Origin: a virus
Virus record (IMG/VR): IMGVR_UViG_3300028496_000013
Location: 1 to 6,880 of that record
Direction: 5' to 3' (one strand)
Length of the DNA: 6,880 bases
The translations under genes and the position numbers were made by a program. The stretch's first letter is position 1; each line of letters opens with the position of its first letter. Shown piece after piece: positions 1,120 to 6,880 of the stretch. A model generated the notes under the pieces. The model was given only the letters and a program-made list of their open reading frames with translations, did not search any database and had not been told where the DNA came from.

Positions 1120-1383
1120 ATGAACCGTTCCAATGCTCTGGCAGTCCACGGCCGCGCCGTGTCGATGTTCAACCGCTGCAAGGCCACCGTCGCCAAGGTC
1201 GGCGCGGGTGCCGCCGCGCTCGTCGCCTCCGGCGCGTCGTTCGCCTCGGGTGGCGGCGACATGGGCACCGTGATCACCGACAAGATCAGCGGCGCCGAAA
1301 CGACCATCCAAGGCATTCTGATCGTCCTGGTCGGCGTGCTCGCGCTGTTCGTGCTCTACAACCTGTTCAAGAAGGTTCGGTAA
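1120..1383 (+). CDS. pVIII-like major coat protein precursor (87 aa)
   Basis: SD-like gggaga at 1108-1113. Signal-peptide-like leader ends ...AAALVASGASFA|SGGGD. The predicted 45-aa mature peptide has an acidic N-terminus (D, D, E), a hydrophobic core (IQGILIVLVGVLALFVLY) and a basic C-terminus (KKVR), which is the classic inovirus coat layout. A rho-independent terminator follows. An in-frame alternative start at M16 (nt 1165) would give a 27-aa leader. Confidence 0.85.
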   Translation: MNRSNALAVHGRAVSMFNRCKATVAKVGAGAAALVASGASFASGGGDMGTVITDKISGAETTIQGILIVLVGVLALFVLYNLFKKVR

Positions 1384-1452: not shown

Positions 1453-1515
1453 ATGGGCTATTTCGTAATCGTCGCGGTGCTTGGCGCGCTGTGGCTCGGG
1501 TTTGAGGCGGTATGA
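1453..1515 (+). CDS. 20-codon hydrophobic micro-ORF (MGYFVIVAVLGALWLGFEAV)
   Basis: Strong SD agggaggg (1441-1448) lies 4 nt before ATG 1453. Stop TGA 1513-1515 overlaps the ATG (1512) of the adsorption-protein gene as ATGA. The peptide is entirely TM-like. It is too short for the ORF track and was found by eye. Confidence 0.45.
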   Translation: MGYFVIVAVLGALWLGFEAV

Positions 1516-2918
1516 ACGGTCGGTGGTTCGTCCGGGTGTTTGCGTCTGCTGTGGTCCGTCGCGTGGCCTATGTGCTCGTCGCGCTGGTGCTCGCTTGGGT
1601 TGGCATGGGTAAGGCGCATGCGCAGCAGGTTGACGATGCTCGGTGCATGGGCTCTGCGCAGGAAGGTGCGATTGCATCGCCCCAGCCGTTGTGTTCGTCG
1701 CAGCAGCTGGCGTATGAGAACACGGGCAACTGGCTGCGGATAAATCGGCCCACGCAGTGGAACGGCGTTATTACTGGTCCGGCGTGTATTGGCAATGGTC
1801 GTTACTGCCGGTATATGACAAGCATCGGTGGTGCTTATATCGATGTTCGCTATTACGATTCGCAGGGTCCATGTCCGGGCGGCGGCGTCTGGAATGACGC
1901 TACGAAGAAGTGCGATGTTGCTTGCGCTAATCGGGCGACGGATGGTTCGGCATCGTTCGATGATTCGCTGTTGGTTGGCAACTATTGCAAGGACGGTTGC
2001 GTGTACGGCGTCGTGCTTGGTGCCGGTGAAACCGGGACGTTCAAGCGTGTTGGCGGTCGCGCGTTTGTGAGTGGCGCGAAGCCTACCGGGTCGTCGTGCA
2101 CGACTGACACGCCGACCGCGATTTATGATCCAGACAAGCCGGTTTGCGTGAGCACGGGCGGTGGCTATTCCGAGTGTGTAAAGCCCAATGGCCAGCATTG
2201 CGTTACCTCCGCTGCTGGTCGCTCTCTCTGCTGGAATCCCGGCGATACCGGCGAGCGCATCACGACCGATGGCACGCTCGGCGGTGATCGCGAGAAGGTG
2301 CCCACAACTCCGACGCCGCCGTCGAATCAGAACGACCCGACGACCGCTGTTGAGTCCACGACCAACGTCAACGGGCAGGACTACAACACGATCATCACGA
2401 CCGGCACGGGTGCCGGCCCTGGCCAACCCAACACGGGCGTCCCCGGCGACGGTGACGGCAACGGGGAAGGGGAGGGCGACGATGACGAAGGCACGGCCAG
2501 CGGCGGTGAGGACTGCAACGCGGCTCCTGTGACCACGGGTGACCCTGTGCTTGGGATGGTGGCCCGGCAGTCGTGGCTTGAGCGCTGCGGCACGCGCAAG
2601 GGCGATGCGGATGGCGACGGCGTGCCCGACTACCTGAAACCCGGTCCCGGCGATGGGGACGGGACCGACGGCAACGATGAGGCTGACGCTGAAGGCGGCA
2701 AGGTTAAGACGGTCGGCCTAGGCTTGAACGTGATTGATCAGGGCGGGTTGTTCGGTGGCGGCGCTGGTCAATGCCCTACGCTCGGCGTGCTCGACTTTGG
2801 AATTTTCGGCACGTATTCGCTCGACGAACAGCCGTGGTGGTGCGATTTGGTCGCGCTCATGCGCGCTGCGTTTCTCATCCTCGGCGCGTATCTCGCGCTT
2901 CGCATCTTGATGGAGTAG
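1512..2918 (+). CDS. pIII-like adsorption / minor coat protein (468 aa)
   Basis: N-terminal signal peptide (…VLVALVLAWVGMGKAHA|QQ). A Cys-rich N-terminal region holds 14 of the 18 Cys. There is a Thr/Pro linker and two Asp/Gly-rich acidic linkers (2442-2492, 2601-2700). A C-terminal membrane anchor (WWCDLVALMRAAFLILGAYLALRIL) is present. Size, architecture and position after the coat gene match gene III. Confidence 0.8.
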   Translation: MNGRWFVRVFASAVVRRVAYVLVALVLAWVGMGKAHAQQVDDARCMGSAQEGAIASPQPLCSSQQLAYENTGNWLRINRPTQWNGVITGPACIGNGRYCRYMTSIGGAYIDVRYYDSQGPCPGGGVWNDATKKCDVACANRATDGSASFDDSLLVGNYCKDGCVYGVVLGAGETGTFKRVGGRAFVSGAKPTGSSCTTDTPTAIYDPDKPVCVSTGGGYSECVKPNGQHCVTSAAGRSLCWNPGDTGERITTDGTLGGDREKVPTTPTPPSNQNDPTTAVESTTNVNGQDYNTIITTGTGAGPGQPNTGVPGDGDGNGEGEGDDDEGTASGGEDCNAAPVTTGDPVLGMVARQSWLERCGTRKGDADGDGVPDYLKPGPGDGDGTDGNDEADAEGGKVKTVGLGLNVIDQGGLFGGGAGQCPTLGVLDFGIFGTYSLDEQPWWCDLVALMRAAFLILGAYLALRILME

Positions 2919-2923
2919 GGGCC

Positions 2924-3238
2924 ATGTTCTCAATCACTGAAACGATCACTTGGGGCATCAAAAAGTTTTGGACGGTTGCGAAGCTCGCGGGTTCGGCCGT
3001 GCTCGGTCGCGTCATGGCGTCTAGCGGGATCGCGCTTGTGACTTACCATGCCGTTCTGCCCGATGTAAAAGCGTTCTTGGCGCAAAAGGTGTCCGGTTTG
3101 TCGCCGCAAGCCTTGGCGTTCTTGCAGGCCATCGGCTTCGATATTTTCATGGTGATGGTGCTATCCGCGCTGGTCGTAAAGATTGGCTCGCGCGTGTTCT
3201 TCTCGACGGTGGCTTCTCTGCCGAGTGGCACGCCATGA
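2924..3238 (+). CDS. pVI-like minor coat protein (104 aa)
   Basis: ATG 2924 follows ggag (2912-2915) and lies 6 nt after the pIII-like stop. The protein is hydrophobic and multi-helix (MFSITETITWGIKKFW...IFMVMVLSALVVKIG). Its stop overlaps the zot-like ATG as ATGA. The longer track ORF from 2771 would overlap the pIII-like gene by about 150 nt and its extension is Arg-rich, so I use the internal start. Confidence 0.7.
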   Translation: MFSITETITWGIKKFWTVAKLAGSAVLGRVMASSGIALVTYHAVLPDVKAFLAQKVSGLSPQALAFLQAIGFDIFMVMVLSALVVKIGSRVFFSTVASLPSGTP

Positions 3239-4398
3239 TCTATCAATACACCGGTCAGCCAGGTCACGGTAAAACACTGCACGCCATTGATCACGCAATG
3301 GAGTTCCGCGATAAGGGCCGCTTGGTCTACGTGTGCAATGTGCGCGGATTCAAGCACGCCGACACGCGGATGCTTCCGCTTGATCCCGAAGGCTTCAAGG
3401 ATTGGGAGTCGCTGCCCGATGGGTCCGTTGTCTTGGTCGACGAGTGCTATGAATCGGGGATGCTTCCGCGCCGTGGTCCGGGAAAACCTGTCCCGCGTCA
3501 TGTCGAACAGCTCGCCAAGCATCGGCATCGCGGCTTCGATTTCATCTTTGTGTGCCAGTCGCCAACCAAGCAAATGGACGATTTCGTGCATGACTTGATT
3601 GAGCGCCATACGCATGTTCGCCGCATTTTTGGTCTACCGTTCGCGCGCCTCCGGATTTTCGACCGATACGAACGCAACCCGGAAAAAGCCCATCCGTTGA
3701 TTATCAAGCGGGTTGGCCTTCCGAAACGCCCGATGGGATCTTATGAGTCCACGGTGCTTGAGACCACCGAAAAGAAAATTCCTTGGTACATGATCGCGCT
3801 CCCCATCGTGCTTGTTGCCGTTGTCGCTGGTGCGCTGTATATGCGGGGTCGAGTCAAAGACGTCATGGGAGAAAAAACCGAGATACCCGTAACAAACGCG
3901 AGCGTCGCGGCGGCTCACGGAGCGGTAGCGACGGGGGGCGTCGCGCCGCTCTCGCCCCCATCCGGTGCATCGCTTCGATCGACCGATTACGTCGCATGGC
4001 TCAAGCCTCGTGTTCCGTCGCAGCCGTGGACCGCGCCCGCTTACGATTCCGTGCCTGTGCCCAACAAGCCGCCGCGGTTGTTCTGTTACGTGACGGGGGA
4101 TGGTGAAACGCTCAAGGGGTGGGAGAAGGGCGGTTGCAAGTGCGTGACCGATCAGGCGACGCGCTACGCCCTCGACGATCTGACGTGCCGGACGATTGTG
4201 CGCGACGGGCAGTACGAACCTCTCTTGCAGAATCAGCCGGATCGGCCCTCGCAGGGGGCGATTGAACGCGGCGAGAATCACGCGCCTGTGGCTGCTGTTG
4301 GTGTTGGTGATCCGGAGTTCCGGGGCCAGCAGGCTCGTTACGGCCAGATGCGTAACGCTGAAATTCCAAACGATTACCACGGGAGCATGATGCAATGA
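3235..4398 (+). CDS. zot: pI / Zot-family phage assembly ATPase (387 aa)
   Basis: Walker A GQPGHGKT (3253-3276). Walker B-like VVLVDE (3427-3444). Motif HRHRGFDFIFVCQSP parallels Ff pI. A single TM helix (IPWYMIALPIVLVAVVAGALYM, about 3781-3843) is followed by a Cys-containing periplasmic C-terminal domain. This is the typical Zonular occludens toxin/pI family layout. Confidence 0.9.
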   Translation: MIYQYTGQPGHGKTLHAIDHAMEFRDKGRLVYVCNVRGFKHADTRMLPLDPEGFKDWESLPDGSVVLVDECYESGMLPRRGPGKPVPRHVEQLAKHRHRGFDFIFVCQSPTKQMDDFVHDLIERHTHVRRIFGLPFARLRIFDRYERNPEKAHPLIIKRVGLPKRPMGSYESTVLETTEKKIPWYMIALPIVLVAVVAGALYMRGRVKDVMGEKTEIPVTNASVAAAHGAVATGGVAPLSPPSGASLRSTDYVAWLKPRVPSQPWTAPAYDSVPVPNKPPRLFCYVTGDGETLKGWEKGGCKCVTDQATRYALDDLTCRTIVRDGQYEPLLQNQPDRPSQGAIERGENHAPVAAVGVGDPEFRGQQARYGQMRNAEIPNDYHGSMMQ

Positions 4399-5048
4399 AC
4401 CTTGCCGCTCGAAACAAATCGTTCGCTTTGAGTTATGACAACGCGGAGTGTTTGAAGTGGTTGGCGCTTGCGTCGATGTTGATTGACCATGCTTCGAAGG
4501 TGTTGGGCCCGTGGGATTTTGCGGTGCCGCTGGGTCGCATCGCGTTTCCGGTGTTCGCGTTCGTCATTGGGCGGCATCTGCTGTCTGACCGATTGCTTAC
4601 TCGGCTGTTGGTGGTCGGCCTGATTGCGACGGTGCCGCATATGCTCACGCTGACGCATGGCGAAGTGTTCCCGCTCAACATCCTGTTTACGTTCGCGTTC
4701 GCTGCCGGTGCGGTGCATCTTCTTCGGGATGGGCGGCCTTGGATCGCGCTCGGCCTGCTGGTGCTCGGAACGGTCGTGTGTGACTACTCGGCGCCCGGCC
4801 TGCTGCTGGTGCTGTCGTCGTGGATGTGGTGGGAGTATCGCGGGGCCCTTGGCGCTGCCGCGCTGGCCATTGGCTTGTTCGTCCTATGCTGGTTCAACGG
4901 GAATGCCTGGGCGCTGCTTGCCGTCCCGCTGGTGGTGCTCACCGTGTCGTGTGATTGGCGGGTGCCGCGCATCCGGCATTTCTTCTGGATCGCCTACCCG
5001 GTCCACCTCGTCGCACTGGCGCTGATCGCCCTCGCGGTACGGGTGTAG
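4395..5048 (+). CDS. traX: TraX-family polytopic membrane protein (217 aa; F-pilin N-acetylase family)
   Basis: The ATG overlaps the zot-like stop as ATGA. Hydrophobicity suggests about 6-7 TM segments. Motifs match my recollection of the TraX family and F-plasmid TraX: LKWLALASMLIDHAS, GRIAFPVFAFVIG, LNILFTFAFAAG and C-terminal HFFWIAYPVHLVALALI. This is recognition from memory and is not HMM-verified. Confidence 0.75.
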   Translation: MNLAARNKSFALSYDNAECLKWLALASMLIDHASKVLGPWDFAVPLGRIAFPVFAFVIGRHLLSDRLLTRLLVVGLIATVPHMLTLTHGEVFPLNILFTFAFAAGAVHLLRDGRPWIALGLLVLGTVVCDYSAPGLLLVLSSWMWWEYRGALGAAALAIGLFVLCWFNGNAWALLAVPLVVLTVSCDWRVPRIRHFFWIAYPVHLVALALIALAVRV

Positions 5049-5091
5049 GGCAGCGCCCTACGGTGACGCTTGTTCGGGGTCGCACAAACAA

Positions 5092-5117
5092 AAGCCCCGA
5101 CCATCTGGCCGGGGCTT
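5092..5117. terminator. Bidirectional rho-independent terminator between convergent genes
   Basis: aagccccg (5092-5099) / cggggctt (5110-5117), plus an inner cc/gg pair around loop atct. The minus strand reads a following ttttgtttgt tract. The plus strand reads a weaker ttcgttcgt. It sits between the + strand traX-like stop (5048) and the - strand ORF stop (5160). Confidence 0.75.
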
Positions 5118-5159
5118 CGTTCGTCACGGCGTCGGAACCTTCCTCACGCTAACCGCTTT

Positions 5160-5426
5160 TCAGCCTGCGCCCACGCCGTGTATCCGGTAGTCGGCCAGTT
5201 CGATCATCACCACCTTGATCTTTGGCCCGTATTTCGCCGCTCGCTGCGCCTGCTCGGCCTTGCGGCGGGACACGTAGCCTGCTAGTCGCAGTTCTGACCG
5301 GTCGCGCCACATGAGCCCGCGTAGGCGCTCTGGCGTCATGCGATCACCGTCCGGGGAAATGAGATGGCGGCCTTTCAGCCGCCACCCGTACCACTCGCCG
5401 TCGAAGTCGATTTGACCTTGGTCCAC
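5160..5426 (-). CDS. Small phage protein of unknown function (88 aa from GTG 5426; longest ATG ORF is 5160..5567, 135 aa)
   Basis: GTG 5426 has a GAGGG SD 7 nt upstream and lies 2 nt after the repressor stop. ATG 5567 has no SD and would overlap the repressor gene by 139 nt. The conserved-looking core FDGEWYGWRLKGRHLISPDGDRMTPERLRGLMWRDRSELRLAGYVSRRKAE reminds me of small DUF3653-type proteins of filamentous prophages. That is an unverified memory. Confidence 0.55.
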   Translation of the reverse strand: MDQGQIDFDGEWYGWRLKGRHLISPDGDRMTPERLRGLMWRDRSELRLAGYVSRRKAEQAQRAAKYGPKIKVVMIELADYRIHGVGAG

Positions 5427-5428
5427 GG

Positions 5429-5875
5429 TCAAGCCCTCACAATGTCGGCATGCCAGCCAACCGTATCTCCCGTCGAGCTTTTGTGACCGGCCTTGCTTCG
5501 GCACCACTCGCCGAAGCGTCCCAGCGCCTTGCGACTGGACATAATAGGCATTGCCCCGCTCTGCCATGCGCTAAGCGCTACTAGCGCCACCCCGATCACC
5601 GTAGTGACCGGGGACAGTCTGTCCCACAAGGCTCTCCAAGCCTTCTTCTCGGCTCTTTCCTCTGCGCCTTCTTGTCGGACTAGCACGATGAGTGCCGGGT
5701 CTGCGTGTGCGAGTTCGATCACTCTTGCTAGGTGCTCGTCTGTGATTCGGTTCACTCCGCGTCGCCATTGCATGACCGTTTGACCGGTCACTTTCAGGGC
5801 TTCGGCTAACGCTCTATCGCTGTCGCGCTGGCATGATTTCCGCGCGTTGTCAAGCAATTTATTTAGCGTGTTCAT
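5429..5875 (-). CDS. HTH (Cro/CI-like) transcriptional repressor (148 aa)
   Basis: SD gggaag lies about 5 nt upstream of ATG 5875. The N-terminal helix-turn-helix signature is SDRALAEALKVTGQTVMQWRRGVNRITDEHLARVIELA. It is transcribed divergently from the replication/structural operon, as for inovirus immunity repressors. It also has a C-terminal hydrophobic segment, PVTTVIGVALVALSAW. Confidence 0.75.
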   Translation of the reverse strand: MNTLNKLLDNARKSCQRDSDRALAEALKVTGQTVMQWRRGVNRITDEHLARVIELAHADPALIVLVRQEGAEERAEKKAWRALWDRLSPVTTVIGVALVALSAWQSGAMPIMSSRKALGRFGEWCRSKAGHKSSTGDTVGWHADIVRA

Positions 5876-6452: not shown

Positions 6453-6880
6453 ATGCCACCCGAAGGCTCACGCGGCCACGTCGAGCTGGTGGATCAGCCG
6501 GAGTTGTACGGTGTCGCGGATACGTGTACCGGCGACGCATGGACTGAGCTTCTCCGGCGATACCCCGCACATGTGTTCGCAACTCTCACTTTTCGGCGGG
6601 AAAAGTTCTGGACCGATCGCGCCGGCAATCGCCACGCCATCAACCGGACAGGCAGCAACGGTTCTATGCATCCGGAAGCGGCCGACAAAGCTTTCCGCAT
6701 GTTCGTTTCCTGCATCAACCGCGAGGTCTACGGTCGCGACTGGGGCCGTCGCTGGCACGGCGGCATCCAGTGGGCGAGGGGGCAGGAGTTCCACAAGGAC
6801 GGCCGGCTCCACTTCCACGCGCTGCTATCAGCCCCGACTGCCGACCTCAACCATCTTGTCTCTCGCTACGCCTGGCACGA
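6453..6880 (+). CDS. Rolling-circle replication initiator (HUH superfamily), 5' part. It continues across the circle junction; the full gene is 6453..6825 + 1..266, 212 aa
   Basis: Own translation from ATG 6453: MPPEGSRGHVELVDQPELYGVADTCTGDAWTELLRRYPAHVFATLTFRREKFW...GQEFHKDGRLHFHALLSAPTADLNHL. It contains Rep motif I FATLTF (6576-6593) and the HUH motif HFHAL (6810-6824). The ATG lies 3 nt after the upstream ORF's stop. It is absent from the ORF track because no stop precedes the window end. Confidence 0.85.
   Translation, partial: MPPEGSRGHVELVDQPELYGVADTCTGDAWTELLRRYPAHVFATLTFRREKFWTDRAGNRHAINRTGSNGSMHPEAADKAFRMFVSCINREVYGRDWGRRWHGGIQWARGQEFHKDGRLHFHALLSAPTADLNHLVSRYAWH
6826..6880. repeat. 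Terminal redundancy, copy 2 (identical to 1-55)
   Basis: Same 55-mer as 1-55. It implies a circular molecule, a circular-contig overlap or a tandem copy with unit length 6,825 bp. Confidence 0.97.

Follow-up and report, generated by a model that had tools for sequence, protein, structure and literature searches.

Analysis of a 6,880-nucleotide (nt) stretch of the IMG/VR virus record IMGVR_UViG_3300028496_000013 (here called the window, meaning the whole stretch) reveals a filamentous phage genome in which the gene directly after the pI/Zot assembly gene encodes a TraX-family membrane protein (positions 4395–5048, plus strand), and in which the major coat protein is predicted to start, once its signal peptide is removed, with a Gly/Ser-rich stretch. 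Across related phages, the traX-like gene and this form of coat N terminus occur together almost without exception. The gene itself is no discovery; its potential interest lies in its function. We assign a probability of roughly 45% to a reading in which the TraX-like enzyme N-acetylates the major coat protein at the periplasmic face of the inner membrane. A wider form of the proposal, that TraX-type enzymes N-acetylate or acylate the coat throughout one clade of inoviruses and that the Gly/Ser stretch co-evolved as a recognition tether, is a possibility that we hold more tentatively.

A TraX-family gene coupled to zot

The traX-like open reading frame (ORF) opens with an ATG formed by the first three bases of an ATGA at 4395–4398, the TGA of which is the zot stop codon, and a GGGAG Shine–Dalgarno sequence (4381–4385) within the 3′ end of zot lies 9 nt upstream of the start; these elements form a translational coupling junction at 4381–4398 on the plus strand. 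The ORF, its start codon and the 4-nt overlap had been described in a first-pass annotation of the sequence, and all three are confirmed. The same annotation was right to name the upstream gene as pI/Zot: the 387-residue product, a pI/Zot-like assembly ATPase (3235–4398, plus strand), matches Pfam Zot (55 bits) and phrog_197 (E = 4e-68).

Assignment of the 217-residue protein to the TraX family, proposed from sequence motifs, is borne out by a hidden Markov model (HMM) search, in which Pfam PF05857 scored 117.1 bits (gathering score, 25; E = 1.4e-33), aligning residues 18–211 with profile positions 3–216 of 217. The protein also matches phrog_5529, 'transfer protein' (E = 4e-39), and PF05857 is present in all 21 of its database relatives. 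The TrbP subfamily model of NCBIfam, NF010454, gives 125.4 bits; because this score is below the curated cutoff of 206, the sequence is best classed as a TrbP relative and not a TrbP equivalog. The proposed signature blocks sit on invariant alignment columns (D31-H32, G47-R48..P52..F54, N95 and F197..Y201..H204-L205). Residues invariant in comparison with F TraX and IncP TrbP are M28, D31, H32, G47, R48, A50, P52, F54, F197, Y201, H204, L205 and L208, and N95 likewise occupies an invariant column of family alignments that include both proteins. K21 is invariant among 23 phage-type sequences and corresponds to the Lys that replaces the Arg of the first transmembrane (TM) helix in proteins of the TmAT superfamily.

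Two plasmid proteins provide the closest functional comparisons. F TraX (WP_000205776, 248 residues) is likewise a polytopic inner-membrane protein of PF05857, with D-H in TM1, G-R..P.F in TM2 and Y..H-L in the last TM segment, but it is only 27% identical to the window protein, and its gene lies at the far end of a 33-kb conjugation operon, whereas the window has no type IV secretion system (T4SS) genes. TrbP of IncP plasmids (RP4/RK2-type) represents the best-scoring curated subfamily, despite the sub-cutoff score, and is 36% identical over nearly the full length.

The first-pass annotation set the gene outside the canonical inovirus core; for this phage group, the arrangement is not unusual. 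A tblastn search of GenBank phages found homologues with 34–38% identity in Xanthomonas phages Xf409, Xf109, Cf1c, XacF1 and XaF13; in the four of these records that we inspected, the gene lies directly 3′ of zot/pI and before convergent DUF3653 and XRE genes where these are annotated. Existing annotations include 'transfer protein' (Cf1cp5 of Cf1c), 'conjugal transfer protein TrbP' (ORF8 of Xf109, and Xf409), ORF9 of XacF1 and ORF-8 of XaF13, the last named a 'TrbP conjugational protein' in the genome announcement (PMC6992868), and Stenotrophomonas phage SMA6 carries a 'trbP-related' ORF192 at the same post-zot place. The zot–traX synteny of the window is thus shared with Xf109, Cf1c, XacF1, Xf409 and SMA6. 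The proteins of these six phages, annotated at about 192–216 residues, belong to the same family as that of the window, their genes overlap or abut zot with DUF3653 and XRE genes convergent thereafter, and their coats start with SGGGG after the signal peptide, resembling the window coat. The window differs in that its TraX is only 34–38% identical and its coat and Zot fall into other clusters.

A profile scan of IMG/VR recovered 147 viral contigs that encode a TraX relative. A survey for traX-like genes 3′ of zot, covering 79 fetched loci and the reference loci, found the gene immediately 3′ of zot on the same strand in 89 of 94 copies; for four of the remaining five, the sequence upstream of the gene is missing. 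Of the junctions, 54 are ATGA and 21 are TGATG, and the overlap with zot is nearly always 4 nt or 1 nt. The window fits this zot–traX arrangement (Xylivirus/Coriovirus/Scuticavirus-type), taken here as one in a genome of about 6–8 kb with a Zot/pVI/pIII/coat module. Conservation of the overlap in about 80 independent phage copies makes co-expression of zot and the traX-like gene likely, as the first-pass annotation had suggested for the assembly genes. The gene is therefore a routine accessory of Xanthomonadales inoviruses, annotated since Cf1c, of which the window holds a new and rather divergent copy; functional characterization is another matter, and our literature search found no experiment on any phage TraX/TrbP-like protein.

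The closest named relative of the window protein, at 62% identity, is encoded by a tandem prophage of a Luteimonas sp., and because this is the best named match the host is likely to be a Luteimonas-like member of the Lysobacterales. In Luteimonas sp. 22616 (locus L005, ~2300–16100) the prophage is tandemly duplicated with a period of ~7,473 bp. In several IMG/VR loci (L186, L155, L192, L031, L054 and L062 among them), two distinct filamentous prophages are neighbours, and the pair often combines a TraX-negative phage of Cf2 type with a TraX-positive one. In one TraX-positive phage (L242), the TraX gene is directly followed by a gene of the AbiGi (abortive infection) family (2903–3631, minus strand). 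By Zot, the closest cultured relative of the window is PSH1 (L086), which has ~470 bp of unannotated sequence after zot (5072–5543) without a TraX-like reading frame, and in which the coat reads GDLATAA right after the signal peptide.

TraX presence tracks the coat N terminus

The major coat precursor of the window (1120–1383, plus strand) is identified by a match to phrog_1646 'major coat protein' (E = 2.5e-5), by its location immediately upstream of the pIII-like gene, and by the presence of a TM segment and basic tail. Signal peptidase cleavage is predicted at GASFA/SGGGD, between A42 and S43, such that the mature 45-residue coat (SGGGDMGTVITDK...) begins at nt 1246; the N-terminal Ser after ASFA that had been proposed at first pass is thereby placed as Ser43. 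This N terminus resembles those of the plasmid pilins: SFA/SGGGDMG in the window coat compares with AMA/AGSSGQDLM in F TraA and AMA/SEGTGGS in TrbC of IncP. The F substrate is, like the coat, a small inner-membrane filament subunit, processed by LepB to leave a small residue followed by a Gly/Ser spacer (AGSSGQD), and TrbC likewise shows Ser and a Gly-rich stretch (SEGTGGS) after its signal peptide. The substrate of F TraX is nevertheless a pilin, whereas the substrate proposed for the window enzyme is a phage coat.

Acetylation of pIII had been offered at first pass alongside that of the coat. The pIII-like minor coat/adsorption protein of the window (1512–2918, plus strand; phrog_4454, phrog_4352 and phrog_815, with fitting size and position) has a predicted mature N terminus at GKAHA/QQVDD. 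Because it starts with Gln and is not Gly/Ser-rich, we rejected pIII as a target, having likewise considered the pIII proteins of two further loci (L238 and L239), and took the coat as the candidate substrate.

To relate TraX to coat type, we used zot-anchored loci from three sets (TraX-anchored, PSH1-like and Cf2-like) together with reference genomes, 256 zot genes in total, and recorded for each whether a TraX HMM match follows zot and which type of major coat is present. The coat was taken as the ORF just 5′ of pIII with a TM segment and a basic tail, which could be assigned confidently for 157 zot genes. We scored as the coat feature at least four residues before the first charge of the mature coat, at least three of them Gly or Ser; a 'later site' variant of the cleavage scoring over-trimmed Gly/Ser-rich N termini and served for a cluster overview only. 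The feature is present in 61 of 63 TraX-positive cases and in 0 of 94 TraX-negative cases. Both TraX-positive exceptions are the two copies of the single Luteimonas tandem prophage, with coat SAPAVDVS. Counted by unique coats, the table reads 40/1/0/42 (TraX-positive with and without the feature, then TraX-negative with and without it); counted by Zot cluster it reads 18/1/0/19 at 80% identity, 7/1/0/8 at 70% (p = 0.0014) and 5/1/0/3 at 60% (p = 0.048). The coat part of the acetylation hypothesis thus gains comparative support; for pIII, acetylation is unlikely.

TraX-positive phages have a signal-peptide coat that begins with a small residue and an uncharged spacer, Gly/Ser-rich except in one lineage. 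TraX-negative coats are of three types: Pf3-like coats without a signal peptide (MGDILTG..., Cf2 type), signal-peptide coats that start with G(D/E)LA.. (PSH1 type), and members of the same coat families as in TraX-positive phages, without the spacer. This third group is the most telling, as it provides contrasts within families. Xf-type coats read (S/T/A/G)GGGG-VDV with TraX and A-DIDIS or AG-IDVS without it (5 loci, from lower-GC hosts), and Cf1c-type coats read SGGG(G)n-DFDG with TraX and QSG-DFDG without it (1 locus). Out-of-sample phages agree in four of four cases, with coats STTPGGAIAAE (L238), SGGGSGFDS (L239), GGGGGVDVS (L240) and GGGGSTGVDVS (Pseudoxanthomonas, L006). In two loci (L237, 7001–7654; L238, 3012–3665) the TraX-like gene does not follow zot, but lies between three small structural ORFs and a pIII-like gene that it overlaps by 4 nt, an independent placement that is still inside the virion module. 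A seeming counterexample, a TraX-negative locus (L049) with an AGGGG coat, was ruled out as an artefact of a Zot fragment match.

The coat N termini also vary among close relatives. The length of the Gly run differs among near-identical Cf1c-family coats (SGGG-, SGGGG- and SGGGGGGG-DFDG), and the first mature residue is S, T, A or G in otherwise conserved Xf-type coats. This variation suggests either slippage with tolerance or diversifying pressure at the proposed modification site. At its other end, the coat of Cf1c itself (L002, NC_001396.1, 313–585) has a C terminus, ..TILAPSRSVVGRFATRSDRRQVSQSAA, that differs from the ..TILAAFALGRWTLRALGLIGGK of close IMG/VR relatives, which suggests that the 1991 record contains a frameshift error.

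Topology and superfamily relations

An AlphaFold2 (AF2) model of the 217-residue protein, built from a 21-sequence alignment, has nine helices, with a predicted local distance difference test score of 93 and a predicted template modelling score of 0.89. Loops contain eight Lys and Arg residues on the inside and one on the outside, giving an N-in/C-out topology. With this topology, D31/H32 in TM1 and R48 in TM2 would each be 5–6 residues away from the periplasmic end of the helix, the side on which the N terminus of the processed coat is located, with K21 nearer the cytoplasmic side. The predicted nine-TM architecture agrees with a 2025 description that places TraX, with nine TM segments, at the border of the TmAT superfamily (Pfam clan CL0316). 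Members of this superfamily take up acyl-CoA on the cytosolic side and hand its acyl group to an extracytosolic acceptor; TraX is unusual there in having a protein acceptor and a Lys in place of the Arg of the first TM helix (PMC12423673). Placement of TraX in TmAT/CL0316 rests on that literature: neither HMM searches nor Foldseek found a link between the window protein and AT3/TmAT enzymes.

A model for N-terminal capping of the coat

We propose that the nine-TM TraX-family enzyme would be made alongside pI/Zot through translational coupling and inserted into the inner membrane, where, as in the TmAT superfamily, cytoplasmic acetyl-CoA would serve as the acetyl donor. Signal peptidase cleavage at ASFA/SGGGD would bare the α-amino group of Ser43 in the periplasm while the coat waits in the inner membrane, and the acetyl group would be passed to this free α-amino group at the periplasmic face. 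The uncharged Gly/Ser-rich stretch may act as a flexible tether that brings the N terminus to an Asp-His/Arg site near that face. Capped subunits would then be assembled by pI through a host secretin, as these phages have no pIV (bioRxiv 2023.12.30.573655). The outcome would be capping of ~10^3 outward-facing coat N termini, which would remove their positive charge, change virion antigenicity or adsorption, and protect against aminopeptidases. The analysis shows the family membership, the conserved motifs, the predicted topology, the conserved coupling to the morphogenesis genes and the co-occurrence with this type of coat N terminus; donor, acceptor, chemistry and benefit are what we infer for the phage enzyme. 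The precedent is F TraX, which genetic evidence shows to be needed for pilin to be N-acetylated once LepB has cleaved between Ala51 and Ala52 (PMC7555446).

If the coat-capping model is correct, a phage-encoded post-translational step, absent from standard inovirus models, would determine the surface chemistry of a whole group of phages of plant pathogens: their charge, antigenicity and adsorption, their resistance to proteases, and how they behave in liquid crystals and biofilms. To our knowledge, no enzyme encoded by a filamentous phage has been described that modifies the capsid; this one would be the first. The poorly understood TraX family would gain a second, independent natural protein substrate, in virions that are small, abundant and easy to study by mass spectrometry, and a natural route to N-cap displayed peptides might follow. 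TraX-positive phages are in culture (Xf109, XacF1 and XaF13), making the prediction directly testable.

Several points weigh against coat capping. Judged from these sequences, the co-occurrence is clean though phylogenetically shallow: it covers few independent lineages, 9–16 Zot clusters plus the two within-family contrasts, and common descent or host range could account for it; the Xf-type coats without TraX come from lower-GC hosts. The cleavage sites were derived from our own (−3,−1)/h-region scoring and not from a trained predictor, and the Luteimonas prophage pairs a 62%-identical TraX with a coat that has no Gly run and an ambiguous site (AFA/SAPA or APA/VDVS). For the phage proteins, the TrbP subfamily model gives the highest score. 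TrbP has no known function and is not essential, and the pilin of IncP plasmids undergoes cyclization, not acetylation. Even for F TraX the case is based on genetics, and pili form without acetylation (PMC7555446). Structural comparison, which the first-pass annotation had proposed as a check, yielded no significant fold match: Foldseek of the AF2 model against PDB and BFVD returned nothing with E < 0.1 and thus gives the reading no structural support, the best PDB match having E = 0.13 and a TM score below 0.27. Finally, the close TraX-less relatives PSH1, Cf2 and SHP2 are viable phages, and TraX function must therefore be accessory and its benefit conditional.

Alternative acceptors and roles

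The leading alternative, which we consider unlikely, is that the enzyme modifies a host envelope protein, such as the pilus receptor or another exported protein, leading to superinfection exclusion or to loss of twitching or virulence. Infection by XacF1 lowers PilA and abolishes twitching, and Ahmad et al. (2014), citing the TraX homology of XacF1 ORF9 and its connection to F-pilin acetylation, speculated that the host pilus is modified (PMC4076744). The first-pass annotation, which raised both host modification and coat acetylation, was aware of no description of either; an idea like the former is thus already in print. For the latter, searches on filamentous and Xanthomonas phage coat acetylation and on TraX with inovirus found nothing relevant and no paper proposing it, and coat capping appears to be unpublished. 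Surface-modifying morons are common in temperate phages, and the end of an operon beside a regulatory module, where the traX-like gene lies, is a typical moron position. However, Ralstonia phage phiRSM3, as cited in the XacF1 study, gives the same effects on twitching and virulence (PMC4076744), and no Ralstonia phage is among the TraX tblastn matches in the phage collection. Modification of a host protein also leaves unexplained why TraX tracks the coat N terminus and why L237 and L238 place the gene among coat genes, and PADLOC found no defence-system match for the traX-like gene or its neighbours. Moreover, the N terminus of type IV pilin is an N-methylated Phe buried in the fibre, unlike the small N terminus of F pilin.

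Less likely again is acylation of a non-protein acceptor (lipopolysaccharide O-antigen, exopolysaccharide, periplasmic glucan or lipid), as performed by most TmAT/AT3 members. The phage-borne O-antigen acetylases of seroconversion (Oac/OafA-type) are a natural comparison, being polytopic proteins of the same superfamily that carry acyl groups across the inner membrane and change the cell surface, and clan CL0316/TmAT indeed groups TraX with carbohydrate O-acyltransferases (PMC12423673); XacF1 infection also changes exopolysaccharide production (PMC4076744). Those acetylases differ from the window protein in having at least 10 TM segments, often an SGNH domain, and carbohydrate acceptors, whereas TraX forms a divergent nine-TM branch of which the only studied member has a protein acceptor (PMC12423673). 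In Pfam searches at E up to 0.1, TraX was the sole match and Acyl_transf_3 was absent, and the 217-residue, all-helical model contains no SGNH or other periplasmic partner domain. A non-protein acceptor would, in addition, leave the correlation with the coat N terminus unexplained.

Least probable is a role without catalysis, in which the protein would aid assembly as the membrane partner of pI/Zot where phages are without pIV, pVII and pIX, and might chaperone or concentrate the Gly-rich coat in the manner of TraQ: the conserved tight coupling to pI, the absence of several Ff assembly proteins from these phages (bioRxiv 2023.12.30.573655) and the co-variation with the coat N terminus all fit such a role, but strict retention of the polar and charged intramembrane residues in common with F TraX (D31, H32, R48, Y201 and H204) at 27–40% overall identity speaks for chemistry over scaffolding, the gene in L237 and L238 is not adjacent to pI, and close relatives assemble without TraX.

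Genome organization and further sequence elements

The window is a JGI metagenome contig in its entirety, and its ends are an exact 55-bp direct repeat (1–55 = 6826–6880), indicating a complete circular genome of ~6,825 bp with 61% GC. Its gene content (Rep, pV-like, coat, pIII, pVI, Zot, DUF3653 and XRE) is that of an integrative-type inovirus; the whole 6.8-kb circle holds inovirus genes only, with no T4SS or conjugation cluster with a pilin gene, and a composition check gave no sign of recent foreign acquisition. The Zot protein is 36% identical to that of PSH1 and 31% to that of Xf109, and no close relative of it was found in IMG/VR.

On the plus strand, a 212-residue HUH replication initiator (6453–6880 and 56–266; Pfam REP_ORF2-G2P, 39.5 bits) spans the circular junction. 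It is followed by a small protein at 579–857, assigned to the pV (single-stranded DNA-binding) position by gene order, as in Xf109 and SMA6, and matching phrog_17532 (function unknown), and by a small membrane protein homologous to the ORF3/pVII-like proteins of Xanthomonas phages (861–1079; phrog_4644, E = 1.7e-14). Downstream of the coat and pIII-like genes, a pVI-like minor coat protein of the DUF2523 family (2921–3238, plus strand; Pfam 23.8 bits, phrog_1242) precedes zot. Beyond the traX-like gene, two minus-strand genes converge on it: a DUF3653 protein (5160–5567; Pfam 35 bits) that is the positional counterpart of Cf1cp7, Xf109 ORF9 and the phiLf ORF112-like protein and has a weak BLASTP match to Cf2 gp09 (E = 2e-5), and a repressor-like XRE/DUF3693 helix–turn–helix regulator (5429–5875; Pfam DUF3693 38 bits, phrog_638 E = 8e-24).

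Between the convergent operons lies a GC-rich 12-bp hairpin (5091–5118) that starts 43 nt past the traX-like stop codon and continues on the plus strand with CGTTCGTC. The first-pass annotation had the gene end at the operon terminator; the hairpin is there, but its T-tract is on the minus strand, and a terminator scan scored it as a terminator for the convergent DUF3653/XRE genes only.

A megablast search of the whole window against phage records returned nothing beyond one 37-bp match. This stretch, CCCCGATCACCGTAGTGACCGGGGACAGTCTGTCCCA (5590–5626), lies inside the XRE/DUF3693 gene and consists of two adjacent hairpin-forming palindromes. Cf2 carries it with 100% identity, and exact copies are present in 27 fetched loci of Cf2-like, PSH1-like and Cf1c-like lineages, phages without other megablast-level DNA similarity to the window. 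It has the look of a conserved cis-acting element and might serve as an origin, in packaging or as an accessory site for recombination. A search allowing up to two mismatches did not find the attP core common to Cf1c, XacF1 and Xf109 (TATACATTATGCGAA) in the window. A shorter sequence, GACATAATA at 5538–5546, is common to the annotated attP region of Cf2 (TTGACATAATATAC) and lies ~45 bp from the 37-bp element; although the match is short, it is a possible candidate for a dif-like XerCD site.

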